Positions 53,563-64,000 of a stretch of 64,000 nucleotides of DNA are shown here, piece by piece. The stretch covers positions 853,881 through 917,880 of the forward strand of contig CAVOYV010000001.1 of NCBI GenBank assembly GCA_963700855.1. The letters are read 5' to 3'. Both the position numbers and the translations under genes were made by a program. Below the pieces are notes generated by a model. It was not told the origin of the DNA, did not search any database, and saw only the letters and a list, made by a program, of their open reading frames with translations. The stretch comes from an uncultured Actinomycetes bacterium. GTDB lineage: Bacteria > Actinomycetota > UBA4738 > HRBIN12. Each line of letters begins with the position of its first letter. Within the stretch, counting starts at the first letter, position 1.

Positions 53563-54129
53563 TCAGGGGGTGCGGGACCGTTCGATGATAGCAGCGACCT
53601 CGTCGGTGGCGCGTTCCAGGTCGTCGTTCACGACCACGTGATCGAACCAGGACGCCTGCTGGAGCTCGCGCTCAGCACCCTCGAGCCGCTCGGCGATGCT
53701 CGCGTCGTCCTCGGTCCCCCGGCCACGGAGTCGAGACTCGAGGTCTCCGAGCGAGGGCGGCGCGATCAGGATCAGCACGGCGTCGGGGGCACGCTCCTTC
53801 ACCTGCGCCGCCCCCTGCACGTCGATCTCGAGCAGCACGTCGAGCCCGGCGTCGCGCCGTTCGTCGACCCAGCCCGCAGGTGTCCCGTACCGGTTACCGT
53901 GGAACACTTCCGCCCACTCCAGCAGTTCCCCGCCGGCGACCATCTCCTCGAAGTCGACGTCGTCCACGAAGAAGTAGTCGACCCGATCGGTCTCGATCGG
54001 GCGGGGCGGGCGGGTCGTGGCGGAGATCGACCGGGCGAGCCGGTGATCGCGGACCAGCAGCGCCTGGACGAGGCTTCCCTTGCCGACGCCAGAGGGGCCC
54101 GCGACGACGATCAGACGGCCCCGGCCCAC
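53563..54129 (-). CDS. gmk: guanylate kinase
   Basis: [35 protein letters not shown]. Confidence 0.97.
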
Positions 54130-54144
54130 GAGGCGGCCGGGTTC

Positions 54145-54462
54145 CTACTTCTTCCCGAAGCGCGCGAGCAGCTCGGCCCGCTGCTTGGAGCCGAGCCCAC
54201 GCACCCGTCGCGTGGCCGAGATGTCGAGCTCCTCCATGATCTTCTGCGCTCGAACCTTGCCCACCCCGGGCAGCGACTCCAAGACGTTCGAGACCTTCAT
54301 CTTCCCGAGCGTCTCGTCGCTCTCGGCCCTCTTCAGGAGGTCGCCGAGGGAACGCGTCCCAGCCTTGAGCTCTGCCTTCACCTCGGCTCGCTTCTTCCTC
54401 GCCTCGGCTGCCTTCGCGAGGGCGTCGGCGCGTTGCTCCGGGGTGAGGGTCGGGAGGGTCAT
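54145..54462 (-). CDS. mihF: actinobacterial integration host factor (mIHF/sIHF)
   Basis: LTPEQRADALAKAAEARKKRAE...KMKVSNVLESLPGVGKVRA...RRVRGLG. SD AAGGAG; TATACT at 54509..54514. Confidence 0.95.
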   Translation of the reverse strand: MTLPTLTPEQRADALAKAAEARKKRAEVKAELKAGTRSLGDLLKRAESDETLGKMKVSNVLESLPGVGKVRAQKIMEELDISATRRVRGLGSKQRAELLARFGKK

Positions 54463-54568: not shown

Positions 54569-55252
54569 CTAGCGGATCGAGCGCGCGATCGAGCGCGCGA
54601 CGCCGGCCGGATCGTCGGCACCGGTGATCGGTCGACCGACCACGAGGAAGTCCGCCCCCCGCTCGATCGCGTCGGACGGGGTGAGCACACGGACCTGGTC
54701 GTCGCCGTTCGACCCCTGGGGACGGATGCCGGGCACCACGAGGCAGAACGCGTCGCCGCACACGTCGCGGACGTCCCGGACGTCCTCGCCGCTCACGACG
54801 ACGCCGTCGAGACCGGCCTCCTTCGCCTCCCACGCGAGCGAGGCCGGCGACGCGAGATCCTCGCCGGTCTGCGAAGAGAGCACGGTCACCGCGATGACGA
54901 GCGGGGTCGGCGCGCCGGCCTCCGCCGCTCCGCGCCGCGCGCCCGCCACGGCGGCCCGCATCATGTCGAGCCCACCGAGCGCGTGCACGTTCATCATCGC
55001 CGGCCCGAGGCGGGCGATGTTCGCGCTCGCCCGCTCGACCGTGGTCGGGATGTCGTGGAGCTTCGCATCGACGAACACCGGGCCGCGTTCGGCGATCCGA
55101 CGCACCGCATCGGGGCCGTGCGCCCAGAACAGCTCGAACCCGACCTTGAGCATCCCGACCTCCGGGGCCAGCACCTCCGCGAGGGAGCTCGCGTGTGCGA
55201 GGTCGCTCGTATCGAGCGCGACGACCAGAGGGTTCTCCGGTGGCGGGATCAC
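54569..55252 (-). CDS. pyrF: orotidine-5'-phosphate decarboxylase
   Basis: VVALD, LKVG, FVDAKLHDIPTTV, PGIRP, VVGRPI. Confidence 0.95.
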   Translation of the reverse strand: MIPPPENPLVVALDTSDLAHASSLAEVLAPEVGMLKVGFELFWAHGPDAVRRIAERGPVFVDAKLHDIPTTVERASANIARLGPAMMNVHALGGLDMMRAAVAGARRGAAEAGAPTPLVIAVTVLSSQTGEDLASPASLAWEAKEAGLDGVVVSGEDVRDVRDVCGDAFCLVVPGIRPQGSNGDDQVRVLTPSDAIERGADFLVVGRPITGADDPAGVARSIARSIR

Positions 55253-56211
55253 GGGACCGATCCGTCGGGTGGGCCGAACCCCGCCGGCACGCGGAGGCGG
55301 GCCCGAACGTCGGCGGGCGAGCCGAGGTTCTTCGCCTTGAGGTACCGAGCGATCCCCTGCGCCACGGTCACGGGTGCCGCCGGGTCGATCATCGTGGCGG
55401 TCCCCACCTGTACCGCCCACGCGCCGGCGAGCAGGCACTCGACCGCGTCGGCGGCGGTCCGGACGCCCCCGCTCGCGATCACCGGCACCCCGGGGACCGC
55501 CCGGGAGACCTCGAACACGGCGCGGAGGGTCATCGGCTTGAGCGCAGGGCCGGACACCCATCCGGTCACGGCACCGAGTTCGGGGGCGAGCCGGTCGGCA
55601 TCGGCCGCGAGACCCGGCGGCGAGCCCGCCACGGTGACCCCGGACGCACCCGCACGGACCGACGCGCGGGCGAGCGACGCCACGTCGTCGACACCGCCCG
55701 GAAGCTTCGCGAACACCGGCACGAGGGACATGCGGGCCACCGCACCGGCGATCTCGGACACACGGTCGACGTGGGCGCCGAGGACCGGGCGCGAGAGCTC
55801 GTCGTCCGGCCCGGAGAGGTAGATCTCGATCGCGGCCACCTGTGGACGCCCCTGAAGGGAGGTCGTGAGCCGCACGAACTCCTCGAGCGTGCCTCCGCCG
55901 ATCGACACGATCACCGGGACCCCCGTCCGTGCGAGTCGATCGAGCTCCTCGCCCACGAAGCCGTCGATGCCCGGGTTCTGCAGGCCCGTATCCCAGACGA
56001 TCCCGGACGGGGACTCGACGATCCGAGGCGTGGGCGCTCCCTTGCGGGGCTCGATCGTGATCGTGCGCGAGACGATCGCCCCCACCTTGTGGAGATCCAC
56101 CAGACCCGTCAGCTCGCGGCCGGAGCCCCCGCACCCGGCGGCGATCATCACGGGGGTGGCCAGGGAGAGCCCCTCCAACTCGACCGACAGCGTCCGTTTC
56201 ACGCCCGCCAT
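55249..56211 (-). CDS. pyrD: dihydroorotate dehydrogenase family 1B catalytic-subunit homolog with a degenerate active site (alternative start GTG 56202)
   Basis: Collinear with PyrD-1B: PTPRIVE, GLQNPG, SGPALKP, IASGGV, VQVGTA. ELNISCPN is replaced by EIYLSGPD. Confidence 0.85.
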   Translation of the reverse strand: MAGVKRTLSVELEGLSLATPVMIAAGCGGSGRELTGLVDLHKVGAIVSRTITIEPRKGAPTPRIVESPSGIVWDTGLQNPGIDGFVGEELDRLARTGVPVIVSIGGGTLEEFVRLTTSLQGRPQVAAIEIYLSGPDDELSRPVLGAHVDRVSEIAGAVARMSLVPVFAKLPGGVDDVASLARASVRAGASGVTVAGSPPGLAADADRLAPELGAVTGWVSGPALKPMTLRAVFEVSRAVPGVPVIASGGVRTAADAVECLLAGAWAVQVGTATMIDPAAPVTVAQGIARYLKAKNLGSPADVRARLRVPAGFGPPDGSVP

Positions 56212-57095
56212 GCCGACTCCCCGGCCCCCGGCCACCGCGTGACCGCCTCGATCCCGCCGGGGGGCGTCGGCAGCATCTTCGGCTCCTCGGACAGCCATCG
56301 ATCCCACAGGATCCTCGCTGGGTTGAACACCGGTCCCTCGGTGCAGGCGCGCAGATGGTCGTAGCCGCTCCCGTCCTTGCGGGCGACCGGCACGACGCAG
56401 GTGTTGCACAGACCGAACCCACAGCCCATACGCTCCTCGATGGCGACCTGGGCGGGGATCCGCAGGTCCCGGCAGACGTCGGCGATCCGGCGGAGCACCA
56501 CCGCCGGCGCGGCCGCGTACAGCACCTCGGTCTTCGTCCGCTCGATCGCTTCGGGCAACGCGTCGACGATCGTCCCCCGATCGCCCAGCGACCCGTCAGA
56601 GGTCACGACCGACACCGTCGATGAGAGCCGCTTCGCCTCGATCGGCTTGAAGACCGATCCGAGCGTGGACCCCCCGATCACCATGTCGACGCGCTTGTGA
56701 CGGGCGAGCAGCTCCTGCGCCAGGAAGTAGAGGGAGGCGGCGTGGCGCCCCTCCGCCACCAGCAGGCAGTTCGTGAGCTTCCTCGGGTACGCGAAGGGCT
56801 TGCCGAGCGGTCCGATCACGTCGAGGAACTCGTGCGCCTTCGCCTGGGCGAGCCAGCGTGATCCCGGTCCCGCGTCGTCGATCGCGAACTCGAGCGTGCC
56901 CGCCCAACCGCCGCGGCGCGACGCTTGGTGGATCGCGTGATGCCGCCGGAGCAGGAACTCGCGGTCCTCGGGCATCGCGATCGCGACGAACTGCCCTGGG
57001 CGCGCGCGGTCGGCGATCTCCGGCGCGACGAGGGTGAGTTGGTGGAAGGCACCGAGCCGGCGGGTCGACAGGATCTCCGCCCGGACACGCTTCAC
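56199..57095 (-). CDS. pyrK: dihydroorotate dehydrogenase electron-transfer subunit homolog (2Fe-2S), FAD/NAD motifs degenerate
   Basis: [31 protein letters not shown]...CTEGPVF. Confidence 0.87.
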
Positions 57096-60000
57096 GCGCC
57101 AGCCTCCGTGGCCGCCACGGCCTCATCGAACGTGAGACGGGCCTGCAGCGGCTCCTGCCTCGCCGCCGCATGATGCTCCTGCACGCTCCGGGGCTCGGTG
57201 GGATCGCCCCGCAACGCCTCGATCCCGCGCACCGCGGCGAAGACCCCGGGCAGCGTGGTGATGCAGGGCACGCCGGCCGACGCGCTCGCGGTCCGGATGT
57301 AGGAGCCGTCCGTGCGCGGCGCACGGCCGAACGGCGTGTTGACGACCAGGTCGATCCGACCGCCGCGGATCAACTCGGCGACGTTGTCGGGGCCCTCGCT
57401 CACCTTCGCGACCCGCTCGACGGGGATCCCCGCCCGTTCGAGCACCCCAGCCGTCCCGCCGGTCGCCAGCAACCGGAACCCCATGTCGGCCAGCCGCTTC
57501 ACCGCGAACACGATCGCCCGCTTGTCACGGTTCGCGACGCTGACGAACACCGTGCCCTCCGTGGGCAGCGCATGCCCCGCGGCCACCATCGCCTTCGCGA
57601 GCGCCATCCCCGAATCCGCGTCGACGCCCATGACCTCACCGGTGGACTTCATCTCCGGGCCGAGGACGGTGTCGACGCCGGGGAACCGCCCGAACGGCAG
57701 CACCGCGGCCTTCACGCTCGTGTACGGGAGGTGCCGGTAGTGGTGCGGGTCGCCCGGCAGCACCCCGGTGGCGACCAGGTCCGCGAGCCGCTGACCGGTG
57801 AGCACCAGGGTCGCGACCCGCGCGAGGGAGACACCCGTGACCTTCGACACGAACGGCACGGTCCGCGAGGCCCGGGGGTTCGCCTCCAGCACCCAGATCC
57901 GCTCGTCCTTGACCGCGAGCTGCAGGTTCAGCAGGCCGACCACCCCGAGCCGCCGTGCCAGACGCCGGGTGATGTCCTCGATCACGTCGAGCTCGTCGTC
58001 GGACAGGGTCGCCGGGGGGATCTGGCACGACGAGTCCCCCGAGTGCACCCCCGCCTCTTCGATGTGCTCCATCACGGCGCCGATGAAAACACCGCCCTCC
58101 TCGTCGGCGACCGCGTCGACATCGACCTCGATCGCCCCCTCCAGGAACCGGTCGATCAGGACCGGGTGATCGGGCGAGGCCGCGGCGGCGGTCCGGACGA
58201 ATCCCTCGAGCTCCTCGTCGTCGTAGACGATCTCCATGGCGCGCCCACCCAGGACGTACGACGGGCGCACGACGACCGGGTAGCCGACCTGCTGCGCGAT
58301 CGCCCGCGCCTCCTCCATCGTGCGCGCCTCCCCGTGCGGCGGCGCGGGGATCTCGAGCTCGTGCAAGATCTCGGCGAACTTGCCCCGATCTTCGGCCAGG
58401 TCGATCGCGTCCGGCGAGGTCCCGAGGATCGCGAACCCCTCCTCCTGCAAGATCCGGGCGAGCCGGAGCGGTGTTTGCCCGCCGAACTGCGCGATCACGC
58501 CGGTGGGCCGCTCGGCGCGGCAGACCGCCAGGACGTCCTCGGCCGCCAGCGGCTCGAAGTACAACCGGCTCGACGTGTCATAGTCGGTCGAGACCGTCTC
58601 GGGGTTCGAGTTGATCATCACCGATTCGTAGCCCGCTTCCTCGAGCGCGAACGCCGCGTGCACGCACGCGTAGTCGAACTCGATCCCCTGGCCGATCCGG
58701 TTCGGGCCGGCACCCAGGATCACGACACGGGGCCGGTCGGCGGGACGGACCTCGGTCTCCTCCTCGTAGGTGGAGTAGTGGTACGGCGTGCGAGCCGGGA
58801 ACTCCCCCGCGCAGGTGTCGACCGTCTTGAACACGGGCTCGACCCCGAGCGCCTCGCGGTGGCGACGGACCGCGCCCTCGGTGGCCCCGGTGAGCGAGGC
58901 GAGCCGCGCGTCGGACACACCCAGCCGCTTCGCCTGCCACAACTCGGCTGCACCCAGCATGTGCAGCGGACGTCCGTCGATCCCCGCGATCTCGTCGACG
59001 ACCTGCGCGATCTGGTCGACGAACCACGGATCGATGCCCGACGCCGCCGAGATGTCGTCGACCGGCTGCCCCCCGAGCAACGCACGCTCCACCAGGTGGA
59101 GCCGATCCTCCGTCGGCGTGCCGAGGGCCTCCAGCACGTCCCCCTCGAAGCCCATCACGTGCTCTGCCCCCAGGTCGAACCCGCCCTTCTCGAGACCCCG
59201 CCACGCCTTGCCGAGCGCCTCCTTGAAGGTGCGGCCGATCGCCATCACCTCGCCGACGGACTTCATCGTCGACGACAGGACCGGCGAGGCCTCGGGGAAC
59301 TTCTCGAACGCGAACCGGGGGATCTTCACGACCACGTAGTCGAGGGTCGGCTCGAACGCCACCGGGGTCTCCCCCGTGATGTCGTTCACGATCTCGTCGA
59401 GGAGGTAGCCCACGGCGAGCAGCGCGGCGATCTTCGCGATCGGGAACCCGGTGGCCTTCGAGGCCAAGGCGCTCGAACGCGACACGCGCGGGTTCATCTC
59501 GATCAGGACCTGACGGCCCGTCCGAGGGTCGACGGCGAACTGGACGTTCGAGCCCCCCGTCTCGACCCCGATCACCCGAAGCACCTTGATCGCGTCATCG
59601 CGCATCCGCTGGTACTCGCGGTCGGTGAGGGTCTGTTGCGGCGCCACGGTGATGGAGTCGCCGGTGTGGACCCCCATCGGGTCCACGTTCTCGATCGAGC
59701 ACACGATCACGGCGTTGTCGGCGCCGTCGCGCATCACCTCGAGCTCGAACTCCTTCCACCCGGCGATCGACTCCTCGACGAGGATCTCGCCCACCGGGCT
59801 GGCGGCGAGCCCGCGAGCGGCGAGCGTCGCGAGCTCCTGGCGGTTGTGCGCGAACCCGCTCCCGCCGCCGCCCAGCGTGAAGGACGCCCGCACGATCAGC
59901 GGGTAGCCGATCGTCTCACCGAGCGCGAGCGCCTCGTCGAGCGTGTGCGCGACGCCTGCGCGCGGGACCTCGAGCCCGGCCTCCTGCATCGCCCGCTGGA

Positions 60001-60394
60001 AACCGCTGCGGTCCTCGGCCTTGTGGATCGCCTCGAGCGAGGCGCCGATCAGGGCGATCCCCAGCCTGTCGAGCTCCCCCGATTCGGCGAGCGCGACGCT
60101 GACGTTGAGCCCGGTCTGTCCCCCGAGGGTCGGCAGGATCGCGTCGGGCTTCTCGCGCTCGAGCACCGCCAGGACGGACTCCGGTGTGAGCGGCTCGATG
60201 TACGTACGGTCGGCGAACTGCGGGTCCGTCATGATCGTCGCCGGGTTCGAGTTGACCAGCGAGACCTCGAATCCCTCGGCGCGCAGCACCTTGCACGCCT
60301 GCGTCCCCGAGTAGTCGAACTCGCACGCCTGACCGATCACGATCGGACCCGAGCCGATCACCATGATCCGCTGGACGTCGGTGCGCTTCGGCAC
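57092..60394 (-). CDS. carB: carbamoyl-phosphate synthase large subunit
   Basis: MPKRTD...[68 protein letters not shown]-terminal MGS domain. The GTG overlaps the carA stop. Confidence 0.97.
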
Positions 60395-61539
60395 TACGCG
60401 CCACCGCCCATCAGGTGGCGGAACTCCTGGAACAGGTACCGGGAGTCGTGCGGTCCCGGGGCCGATTCCGGGTGGTACTGGACGCTGAAGGCCGGCACAT
60501 CGAGGCACCGCATCCCCTCGAGGGTCCCATCGTTCAGGTTCCAGTGGCTGAGCGCCACCCGGCCGTAGTCTGAGAGAGCCTCGCCGTGCGGGTCCTTCAC
60601 CCACCCCTCCGGATCCACCGCGAATCCGTGGTTGTGCTCGTGATCTCGACACGCCCGCTGCGAGGTCCTTCACCGGCTGGTTCACGCCGCGGTGGCCGAA
60701 CTTCATCTTGTAGGTGCGCCCGCCGAGCGCCAGGCCCAGGAGTTGGTTGCCCAGACATACTCGAAGACTTCGGCACCTTGCCGAGCAGTTCGCGCGTCGC
60801 CGCGATCCCGTAGGCGGTGGCGGCGGGGTCGCCGGGTCCGTTCGACAGGAACACCCCGTCGAACCCGCCGTGCGCGACGGCCGCCGCCGGCGACTCGGCC
60901 GGGTAGACGGTCGTCTCGATCCCGTGCGCGGCCAGAAGGCGCAGGATGTTCCGCTTCATCCCGAAGTCGAACGCGGCCACCCGGAAGACCCGTCCGTGCT
61001 CCGTCGCCGCCGTCCCGACGAGGTCCGCCGCCGCCCACGGCTCGGTCGAGGTGACCGTGCGGGCTAGGTCGGCTCCCGCATCCCCGGCGAGGCCTGGACC
61101 CGGCCGACGAGCGACCGAGGCTCCAGGTCGACCGTCGAGGAATCGCGGCTCGCATCGCGCCGTGCTCGCGCAGCCGCAGCGTCAACCGACGCGTGTCGAT
61201 CCCCTCGATCCCGACGACACCGTCCGCCTGCAGGTGCTCCCCGAGCGGAGCTTCGGTATCGCCACGAAGACGGCCTCCGCGTAGCTTCACGGACGACGAA
61301 GCCCGCCACCTGCACGCGCCACGACTCGGGGTCCTCGCCGTTCACGCCGTAGTTGCCCTGCTGCGGCGCGGTCATCGTCACGATCTGCCCCGCGTAGACG
61401 ACGGGTCCGTCAGGACCTCCTGATACCCGGCCATCCCTGTTGAAGACGGCCTCCCCGAAGGTCTCGCCCTCGGCCGCGAACGCCGACCCATGGAACACCG
61501 TCCCGTCCTCGAGCGCCAGCAGCGCGGAGTCCCGCTCAC
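60394..61539 (-). CDS. carA: carbamoyl-phosphate synthase small subunit; several indels and miscalls in this sequence
   Basis: Fragments in several frames: [89 protein letters not shown]. Confidence 0.92.
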
Positions 61540-62826
61540 CGCGTCGCCTCGCGTGGCGACCGTCAGCGTCCCGCGGAGCATCGTGAACCGGACACGACCG
61601 GTGAGGCGCCGTCCGAGGAACGCGCGTTGCGGGCCCTCGACACGAACGGCGTCTTCATCACCCATCCCTGCGGGGTCGAACGCGACGAGGTTCGCCGGAC
61701 GACCCACCTCGATCGGTCCACCGTGGTCGGCCGCCCCGAGGATCCGCGCCGGAGCGACCGTCATCGTCTCCAGGGCACGCATCAGGGACACACGCCCCGG
61801 GTGGACGAGCTCCGTCAGCACGACGCCGAGCGCGGTCTCCAGGCCGATCGTCCCCGGCAGCGACAGGTCGAACTCCGACTCCTTCTCCTCGATCGCGTGC
61901 GGAGCGTGATCGGTCGCGATCACGTCGATCGTCCCGTCGGCGACCGCCTCCCGCAGGGCCTCGCGATCATCCGCCGTCCGAAGGGGAGGGTTCATCTTGA
62001 GGTTCGTGTCGTAGGTGGCGACGTCGTCGTCGGTGAACGTCAGGTGATGCGGCGTGACCTCCGCGGTCACGCGGAGCCCCTCGGCCTTCGCCGCCCGGAC
62101 GAGCTCGACCGCCCTCGCCGACGAGAGGTGGCACAGGTGCAGCCGCCCCCCCCGTGGCGCGCGCCACGGCGAGGTCCCGGGCCACCGCGATCTCTTCCGC
62201 CGCGGCCGGGCGACCCGCGACGCCCATCGCGTACGAGTTGGAGCCTTCGTGCATATGGCCGCCCTCGACGAGCGAGGCGTCCTCGGCATGATCGGCGAGG
62301 ACGATCTCCACCGGGAACGCCTTGGCGTACATCAGGGCGTTGCGGAGCAGCCGTGCGTTCGACACCGTGTCGCCGTCGTCGGAGAAGACCCGGACCCCGG
62401 CGTCGACCATCTCGCCCATCTCCGCCAGCGACTCACCGGCACGACCCTTCGTGATCGCGCCGACCGGGAACACGTCGGCAAGACCGGCGGCCGCGGCGAG
62501 GTCGCGCACCTCGTGCACGATCGCCGCGTGGTCGGTGACGGGGTCCGTGTTCGCCATCGAGGCCACCGCCGTGAATCCACCGGTCGCCGCGGCGCGGGTT
62601 CCGGTCTCGACGGTCTCCTTGTGCTCGAAGCCGGGTTCGCGCAGGTGCGTGTGGAGGTCGACCAAGCCCGGAGCGATGACCAGGCCTCGAGCGTCGATCC
62701 GTTCCGCGCCTTCCGTCGCTTCGGGCCCTGCGATCACGCCGTCGGCGACGACCACGTCGCGCACCTCATCGGTCCTGTTCGCCGGGTCGACGACCCGACC
62801 GCCCTCGAAGACGATCCGCTCGCCCG

Positions 62827-62830
<4 letters not shown>
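61536..62830 (-). CDS. pyrC: dihydroorotase; indels near 62150, 61680 and 61550
   Basis: [53 protein letters not shown]. Confidence 0.94.

Positions 62831-64000
<1,170 letters not shown>

Follow-up and report, generated by a model that had tools for sequence, protein, structure and literature searches.

What keeps a two-subunit redox enzyme in a genome once the sites for both of its substrates are gone? The question arises at a locus in a 64,000-nucleotide stretch of contig CAVOYV010000001.1, from an uncultured actinomycete (the window), where a pyrimidine operon carries, between carB and pyrF, two genes that we call pyrK' and pyrD'. They are homologues of the electron-transfer and catalytic subunits of class-1B dihydroorotate dehydrogenase (DHODH), for which the Lactococcus lactis enzyme, DHODB, serves here as the reference. 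A preliminary description of the DNA had argued that the product of pyrD' could not be a normal DHODH, and that it had either become a pseudoenzyme or, as a flavoprotein, taken on a new substrate, and the loss of its substrate site, a second pyrD in the genome and purifying selection all support that argument. We put at about 0.7 the probability that the pair is a maintained, catalytically dead DHODB that has retained a role other than dihydroorotate oxidation, either in electron transfer or as a scaffold.

The dihydroorotate site of PyrD' has been lost

In a phmmer search of the PDB, residues 7–279 of PyrD' aligned to the PyrD subunit of DHODB (1EP1_A, E = 1.9e-49). The alignment contains two small indels, so that an earlier statement that there were none is nearly right. 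In this alignment (residue positions follow DHODB, except for Arg49, Trp73, Asp136, Lys169 and Trp218, which follow the window's protein) the catalytic base of the NxSCPN loop, Cys135, is Gly, and the orotate-binding residues Asn72, Asn132, Asn137, Asn197 and Lys48 are Trp, Tyr, Asp, Gly and Arg, respectively. Motif by motif, VKAT has become VSRT (K48R), MLNAIGL has become IVWDTGL (N72W), ELNISCPN has become EIYLSGPD (N132Y, C135G and N137D, at 55827..55804, as claimed), MINT has become VAGS (N197G) and GGLSG has become GWVSG (G219W). The alignment thus bears out the motif losses of the preliminary description, including those of the catalytic Cys and the orotate-binding Asn residues, with two corrections. 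The change described as MLNAIGL to VWDTGL is real, but the Asn is replaced by the Trp and not by the adjacent Asp. The change of ANVAG to VSIGG (N104S), which had been counted as a lost Asn, is not a loss, because canonical class-1B enzymes carry Ser at position 104 as often as Asn (43 and 42 of 85, respectively); we therefore rejected it. For comparison, the orotate contacts of class-1A DHODH, in Trypanosoma cruzi numbering, are Lys43, Asn67, Met69-Leu71, Asn127, Asn132 and Asn194 (PMC12060061).

Much of the rest of the protein is kept. PyrD' retains K170 (in AKL), SGG, VGT, S221-G222 and the ASG/AAG loop, and the retention of SGG, VGT and the AKL lysine had been noted correctly. An AlphaFold2 model built from 63 sequences has a mean predicted local distance difference test score of 94.3, active-site loop included, and superposes on DHODB PyrD (1EP3 and 5UE9) with template-modelling scores of 0.89–0.94 and a root-mean-square deviation of 1.4 Å to 5UE9. 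On the model and the motifs, PyrD' is predicted to be a TIM barrel of the DHODH fold that keeps both the phosphate and ribityl motifs for flavin mononucleotide (FMN) and Lys170.

PyrD' matches Pfam DHO_dh (PF01180) at 1.9e-48 and 165.6 bits, against a cut-off of 27. Of the NCBIfam models, the class-1B equivalog NF005574 fits it best, yet the score of 260.7 bits is below the cut-off of 269; TIGR01037 gives 227.3 bits, also below its cut-off of 270. A best match to class-1B PyrD that falls short by 8 bits, from a gene that lies within the pyrimidine operon and is translationally coupled to pyrF, is what one would expect if the pair were still a DHODH, main or second, that binds its substrate and abstracts the proton with unusual residues. 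The conservation of the site across relatives speaks to this directly.

A homologue search over 5.8 billion proteins gave more than 120 matches at 68–96% identity, all from uncultured Actinomycetota. We compared a set of 121 homologues (the clade) with 85 representatives, clustered at 50%, of canonical class-1B PyrD (Table 1). Because the 121 homologues that share the substitutions come from independent assemblies, sequencing error is ruled out as their source and they can be taken as features of the lineage. R48, W72 and D137 are each invariant in the clade, in line with purifying selection on the new residues, for which a test had been proposed.

Table 1. Residues at active-site positions (DHODB numbering) in the clade and in canonical class-1B PyrD
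Position	Clade (n = 121)	Canonical (n = 85)
48	R 121	K 85
72	W 121	N 85
132	Y 57, H 46, N 7, F 6, C 4, Q 1	N 85
135	G 91, A 9, L 6, E 4, S 3, Q 3, V 3, T 1	C 85
137	D 121	N 85
170	K 121	K 85
197	G 106, A 10, S 3, D 2	N 85
219	W 114 (94%)	G 85

No clade member has Cys at position 135, nor is Ser preferred there. At some 30 further positions, variable in canonical enzymes, 95% or more of the clade share one residue. Conserved in both sets alike are G25, K170, G218, S221, G222, G248, G249 and G270, which we assign, by the L. lactis structures, to the part of the FMN site that holds the ribityl phosphate. When representatives clustered at 50% identity were searched exhaustively, about 105 of the top 150 matches carried the canonical signature KN[NS]NCNKN[TS]G. 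That the pair still oxidizes dihydroorotate is therefore very improbable: the four orotate-binding Asn residues and the base are gone, the position of the base is not even conserved, and canonical enzymes are invariant (85/85) at the lost sites. In addition, a yeast complementation study took a Cys-to-Ala mutant of a class-1A DHODH as its inactive control (PMC10395836), and an intact class-2-type DHODH is encoded in all 50 genomes of the window's family that were searched (see below).

PyrK' has lost its pyridine-nucleotide loop and kept its iron–sulfur ligands

PyrK' matches PF10418 at 1.2e-12, but its NF000799 score of 117.7 bits falls far short of the cut-off (314). Its best PDB matches are NfnA (4YLF, E = 2.3e-23) and PyrK (5KSW_B, E = 1.2e-19); 1EP3_B was also matched. 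We tallied motifs over 31 orthologues. All four Cys ligands of the 2Fe-2S cluster (C-x4-C-x2-C...C; CGFGLCNTC...C in the window) are present in 31/31, as is the pyrophosphate motif for flavin adenine dinucleotide (FAD), GxG[ST]xW[LV]. In the same 31 proteins the Gly-rich loop for nicotinamide adenine dinucleotide (NAD), GGGxGxxP, has been replaced by [AGS][EQ][GR][RH] (AEGRHAAS in the window). A second FAD motif, RPFS, reads RHHA in the window, and the last position of this RxxS motif is Ala in 18 orthologues, Ser in 9 and Thr in 4. The PyrK proteins of sister families with a canonical PyrD read RRPFSI and LLVGGGYGAAP at these sites.

Because both the dihydroorotate site and the NAD loop are lost, both substrate ends of the path from dihydroorotate through FMN, 2Fe-2S and FAD to NAD+ are gone. 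The middle of the path, where the cofactors are held, is conserved, and from the motifs we infer that FMN, 2Fe-2S and probably FAD are bound.

Two further features of PyrK are shared more widely. An insert, RRGGWAGT, lies just past the FAD RxxS motif in PyrK throughout the order, in canonical as well as dead forms (the window and loci L068-L079). Many PyrK proteins of the order also have a conserved C-terminal tail, ...LPTPPEGLPVVRSWPG, which overlaps the start of pyrD.

The genome encodes a second, class-2-type PyrD

The genome was searched for a class-2 pyrD, and an intact class-2-type gene was found at G000:C7:183724-184701 (locus L005, 1477..2457; 326 residues), where G000 is the window's own assembly (2.52 Mb in 8 contigs, 82% complete). 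Over its full length the product can be aligned with class-2 DHODHs (Mycobacterium tuberculosis 8OFW and 4XQ6, E = 6e-39; also human and rat); the alignment with M. tuberculosis 8OFW spans residues 8–322, N-terminal domain included. Its motifs are AAGFDK, LVNAMGL, LELNASCPN, CGNT, GGLSG and VKLPP, so that it combines the N-terminal helical domain of class 2 with the full set of catalytic and orotate-binding residues. It scores below the class-2 cut-offs (NF003652, 221 against 267; TIGR01036, 171.5 against 200), and its catalytic base is Cys (LNASCPN) where class-2 enzymes carry Ser. For both reasons we call it class-2-type and not a member of class 2. This enzyme very probably performs the dihydroorotate oxidation.

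Among orthologues of the class-2-type gene in the order, the base alternates between Ser (G001, G009 and G034) and Cys (G000, G002, G013, G018 and G030). A third gene with the DHO_dh fold lies on the minus strand of the same contig at about 191 kb (locus L003, 1333..2370; 345 residues), directly downstream of a pyruvate:ferredoxin-oxidoreductase-like gene, and matches PF01180 weakly (3e-9). We presume it to be of the 'dihydroorotate dehydrogenase-like protein' type (NF005741).

The pair is kept by strong purifying selection

Strong purifying selection maintains the pyrK'–pyrD' pair. Pairwise dN/dS (Nei–Gojobori) is 0.065–0.17 for pyrD' and 0.035–0.21 for pyrK', and 0.05–0.21, 0.09–0.22 and 0.05–0.11 for pyrF, gmk and carB, respectively. 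All relatives are metagenome-assembled genomes (MAGs). An orthologue of pyrD' is found in 187 of the 201 genomes of the window's family, in 84 of the 85 that are of high quality and in 32 of 33 genera; the frame is open in 184 of the 187, and the other three have a single in-frame TGA. The order carB-pyrK'-pyrD'-pyrF-x-gmk is fixed in about 35 species-level genomes, whose proteins are about 70% (pyrD'), 72% (pyrK'), 74% (pyrF) and 63% (gmk) identical to those of the window. These syntenic orthologues, for which a test of selection had been proposed, show the features of a maintained pseudoenzyme: the catalytic residues are lost, the gene is intact and selection against change acts across species. 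Since the pair is under selection and has lost both substrate sites, it must have a function other than dihydroorotate:NAD+ oxidoreduction.

The same figures leave very little room for a functionless relic that is heading for loss and happens to be still undisrupted. The dN/dS of about 0.1 is on a par with that of pyrF and gmk, the identity of about 70% is like that of pyrF, and the frame and the gene are retained almost throughout the family. What such a relic would explain well is the graded decay of the active site from family to family once a class-2-type gene is present, to which we now turn.

Active-site decay is graded across the order

We searched 121 genomes of the order for the class-2-type gene and, in sampled genomes, read the class-1B PyrD signature as the residues at ten positions (f1 is the window's family and f2-f8 are other families). 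The class-2-type gene is present in 50/50 genomes of f1, 3/3 of f2, 1/2 of f3 and 9/10 of f6. It was not found among these genomes in f5 or f8, and in f7 the sole match is a fragment at the end of a contig of G049, a genome with 5% contamination. The families f5, f7 and f8, which thus lack the class-2-type gene save for this fragment, have a single class-1B PyrD with the canonical signature KNSNCNKNTG in 5 of 6 sampled genomes; the sixth, G008, has Ser at the base (KNSNSNKNTG). Families that carry the class-2-type gene show a graded decay of the class-1B pair. Outside f5, f7 and f8 the signatures are TSSNCNKNSG and IHSNCNKGAF in f2, PSSNCNKNTG, RSSNCDKNAG and RTSNCSKHSG in f6, QWSNCDKGPW in f4, RSSYSDKDGA in f3 and RWS[YH]GDKGSW in f1, and decay of PyrK is seen in the same families as decay of PyrD.

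A maximum-likelihood tree unites the class-1B PyrD proteins that are decaying or dead in one clade, with a support of 99 (Shimodaira–Hasegawa-like approximate likelihood ratio test). The sister group of this clade consists of the order's canonical enzymes, and the joint clade has a support of 99. The simplest history is that the class-2-type gene was gained once, after which both substrate sites were relaxed and decayed differently in each family while the rest of PyrD' and PyrK' stayed under selection.

What the pair may do

How might a dead enzyme be put to use? The pyrK' and pyrD' genes would descend from a class-1B DHODB heterotetramer. A class-2-type PyrD, gained by an ancestor from which this part of the order descends, would have taken over dihydroorotate oxidation. 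In the operon pair, PyrD' would then have lost its dihydroorotate site and PyrK' its NAD+ site, losses that are plain in the alignments. The middle of the path is still constrained, through Lys170 and the FMN phosphate and ribityl residues in PyrD' and through GxG[ST]xWL and the four 2Fe-2S Cys residues in PyrK'. The pair would most likely be a cofactor-bearing partner within pyrimidine synthesis, serving electron transfer or, as a pseudoenzyme, structure. Trp73, Trp218, Asp136 and Arg49 would close or stabilize the former orotate pocket over the flavin. Within the window's family Arg49, Asp136 and Trp73 are invariant and Trp218 is 94% conserved, and positions 131, 134 and 196 are free. The four fixed residues could mark a plugged pocket with a stabilized flavin, by analogy with flavodoxins, which sandwich their flavin between aromatic residues, or they could mark a new ligand site.

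The second of these possibilities leads to a different view, that of a neofunctionalized flavoenzyme. Its pocket would have been rebuilt around Arg49, Trp73, Asp136 and Trp218 for another substrate, to be oxidized or reduced, with Asp136 or another residue as the acid/base, and electrons would pass through 2Fe-2S and FAD to some acceptor that is not NAD+. Four positions with type II divergence (K48R, N72W and N137D at 100%, G219W at 94%), the many clade-specific fixed positions elsewhere in the protein, an active-site loop modelled with high confidence and the strong selection on pyrD' are all as such an enzyme would have them. We nevertheless consider it unlikely. Other positions of the pocket vary within the family (six residue types at 132, eight at 135 and G, A, S or D at 197), and sister families differ at the very same sites (S, H, T or W at 72; N, D or S at 137), which looks like relaxed and not directed change. 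The pyridine-nucleotide loop of PyrK' was lost in parallel, and no new neighbouring genes hint at a new pathway.

Several points weigh against a maintained, dead DHODB with another role. Two genomes that are 81-83% complete (G003 and G010) have a degenerate class-1B PyrD, and the class-2-type gene was not found in them. In the L. lactis structures Asn72, Asn132 and Asn197 also touch the FMN ring, which means that PyrD' may bind FMN less well or not at all, and the Trp at the Gly of GGLSG might clash with FMN. Cofactor binding by the pair, and any activity it may have, are putative. The fixation of R48, W72 and D137, and of W219 at 94%, is also compatible with a new ligand pocket. Lastly, in the window's family the class-2-type gene is not adjacent to the pair, and since the genes lie apart, a physical partnership between the two would be pure conjecture. 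Our preference for a dead but maintained pair, retained for electron transfer or as a scaffold, takes these points into account.

We offer one bolder idea, tentatively and as more doubtful than that preference: the pair may be a 'wire without ends' that another enzyme has come to need as its partner. It could be the electron acceptor or a prozyme-like activator of the class-2-type PyrD, next to which such a pair is encoded in Nocardioides, or its Trp/Trp/Asp/Arg pocket above the flavin could take up a new redox substrate or acceptor. If the partner or new-pocket idea were true, DHODB-derived modules of FMN, 2Fe-2S and FAD would be an undescribed redox class in Actinomycetota and Chloroflexota, and databases would be mislabelling such modules as DHODH.

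Genomic layout

Four genes are translationally coupled, in the order carB, pyrK', pyrD' and pyrF (Table 2). The overlap of pyrK' with pyrD' is 13 nt, and the junctions of carB with pyrK' and of pyrD' with pyrF are GTGA start/stop overlaps, which confirms the coupling to pyrF noted before. Downstream of pyrF follow a mihF-like gene and gmk, and upstream of carB lie carA, pyrC and pyrB.

Table 2. Features of the pyrimidine locus in the window
Feature	Position	Strand	Details
gmk	53563..54129	minus	TIGR03263, 220.1 bits (cut-off 160)
mihF-like small gene, between pyrF and gmk	54144..54462 (approximate)	minus	from translation
pyrF	54569..55252	minus	GTG start overlaps pyrD' stop (GTGA); NF001273, 217.9 bits (cut-off 193)
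pyrD', class-1B PyrD homologue with dead dihydroorotate site	55249..56211	minus	ATG at 56211 to TGA at 55249; 320 residues
Trp218, in place of second Gly of GGLSG (DHODB Gly219)	55558..55560	minus	
Lys169 (DHODB Lys170), FMN-binding lysine, kept	55705..55707	minus	
Active-site loop EIYLSGPD (ELNISCPN in DHODB; N132Y, C135G, N137D)	55804..55827	minus	residues 129–136
Trp73, in place of orotate- and FMN-binding Asn72 of DHODB	55993..55995	minus	
pyrK', electron-transfer subunit homologue	56199..57095	minus	298 residues
carB	57092..60394	minus	stop overlaps pyrK' start (GTGA)
carA, frame-broken (three frames)	60391..61381 (approximate)	minus	tblastn with relatives' CarA
pyrC, two open reading frames via a frameshift near 62146	61378..62830	minus	
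pyrB	62827..63753	minus	NF002032, 404.5 bits (cut-off 263)

The product of the small gene between pyrF and gmk has about 105 residues (MTLPTLTPEQRADALAKAAEARKKRAEVKAEL...). It is probably the actinobacterial mIHF, which would make the order pyrF-mihF-gmk mycobacterium-like.

The motifs of pyrB, carB and pyrF had been described as intact, and these three genes are open. In the same operon, this assembly has frame breaks in carA and pyrC. Relatives' CarA proteins match by tblastn in frames -1, -3, -1 and -2, and the pyrC frameshift coincides with a run of G8 in the window and G7 in a relative (L008, 81% identical). Compared with L008, the stretch 60630-62150 contains some 16 indels of one or two bases, and carB, pyrK', pyrD', pyrF and pyrB, which flank this indel-rich 1.5 kb, are all open. 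The carA and pyrC indels are probably a polishing artefact in a poorly polished long-read stretch, with real decay as the alternative. Across family-level loci, full-length matches to carB are 79-93% identical.

Implications and relation to known systems

Many proteins of the clade are labelled 'dihydroorotate dehydrogenase (NAD+) catalytic subunit' in IMG, and some are labelled 'dihydroorotate dehydrogenase' at NCBI. Because of such labels, metabolic reconstructions of abundant soil Actinomycetota misassign both the enzyme and the electron acceptor of the fourth pyrimidine step. The order also offers a natural series that shows the fate of a displaced multi-cofactor enzyme: a canonical enzyme comes first, a class-2-type gene is gained, the two substrate sites are lost step by step, and the pair is then retained over the long term. 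With both substrate sites gone and selection as strong as on pyrF, a role beyond dihydroorotate oxidation is implied for this flavo-iron–sulfur pair.

The closest known system in kind is the PyrDB/PyrK enzyme of L. lactis (1EP1-1EP3, 5UE9 and 5KSW), which has the same fold as the pair and the same order pyrK-pyrD between carB and pyrF; the two also have in common Lys170, the residues for the FMN phosphate and the four Cys ligands of 2Fe-2S. Unlike it, the pair lacks Cys135, Asn72, Asn132, Asn137, Asn197 and the Gly-rich NAD loop of PyrK, has Arg for Lys48 and Trp for Gly219, often has Ala for the Ser of the FAD RxxS motif and falls under the NCBIfam equivalog cut-offs with both proteins. The canonical PyrD-1B/PyrK enzymes of f5, f7 and f8 are direct orthologues of the pair, at 45-48% identity, in the same operon and with the RRGGWAGT insert in common; unlike the pair, they keep the catalytic and orotate-binding residues, RRPFSI and GGGYG.

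Dead or divergent pairs are also found elsewhere. In a Nocardioides MAG (NZ_CADCUP010000070; locus L041, 4100..6834), carB is followed by an intact class-2 pyrD (NVSSPNTPGLR) and, directly after it, by a dead class-1B pair (pyrK-like and pyrD-1B-like genes) and then pyrF. The signature of this PyrD, RNSNADKNAG, has Ala for Cys, N137D and K48R and, unlike the window, keeps Asn72, Asn132 and Asn197. Nocardioides-type dead pairs fall apart from the window's clade in a free tree, although an approximately unbiased test does not reject a single clade of the two (p = 0.286). Anaerolineae and Caldilineaceae MAGs (L042-L044) encode PyrK-like and PyrD-like pairs with K48N, N72L, N132G and a shortened active-site loop, and no carB, pyrF or gmk matches were found in the flanks of these pairs.

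PyrK' matches NfnA (Thermotoga maritima 4YLF; Pyrococcus furiosus NfnI, 5JCA) slightly better than it matches PyrK. Subunits of the NfnA type carry FAD and 2Fe-2S and serve partners other than PyrD, but NfnA keeps the GGGVG loop and has a partner of the glutamate-synthase type, whereas the partner of PyrK' is still a protein of the PyrD fold.

No description of a dead PyrD/PyrK pair was found in the full-text literature searched, with most subscription journals outside its scope, and the pair is apparently undescribed, although maintained dead paralogues are known in kind. The inactive dihydroorotase PyrC' of Pseudomonas aspartate transcarbamoylase is a pseudoenzyme maintained as a partner. 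Among trypanosomatids, the prozymes of S-adenosylmethionine decarboxylase and deoxyhypusine synthase are dead paralogues kept with the active enzyme (PMC6221367, PMC3663545). The trait shared with prozymes and PyrC' is a dead copy of a pathway enzyme that is under selection beside, or together with, an active one. Binding or activation of an active enzyme by the pyrK'–pyrD' pair would be conjecture and, unlike those cases, the pair is a whole two-subunit redox enzyme that is dead at both of its substrate sites.

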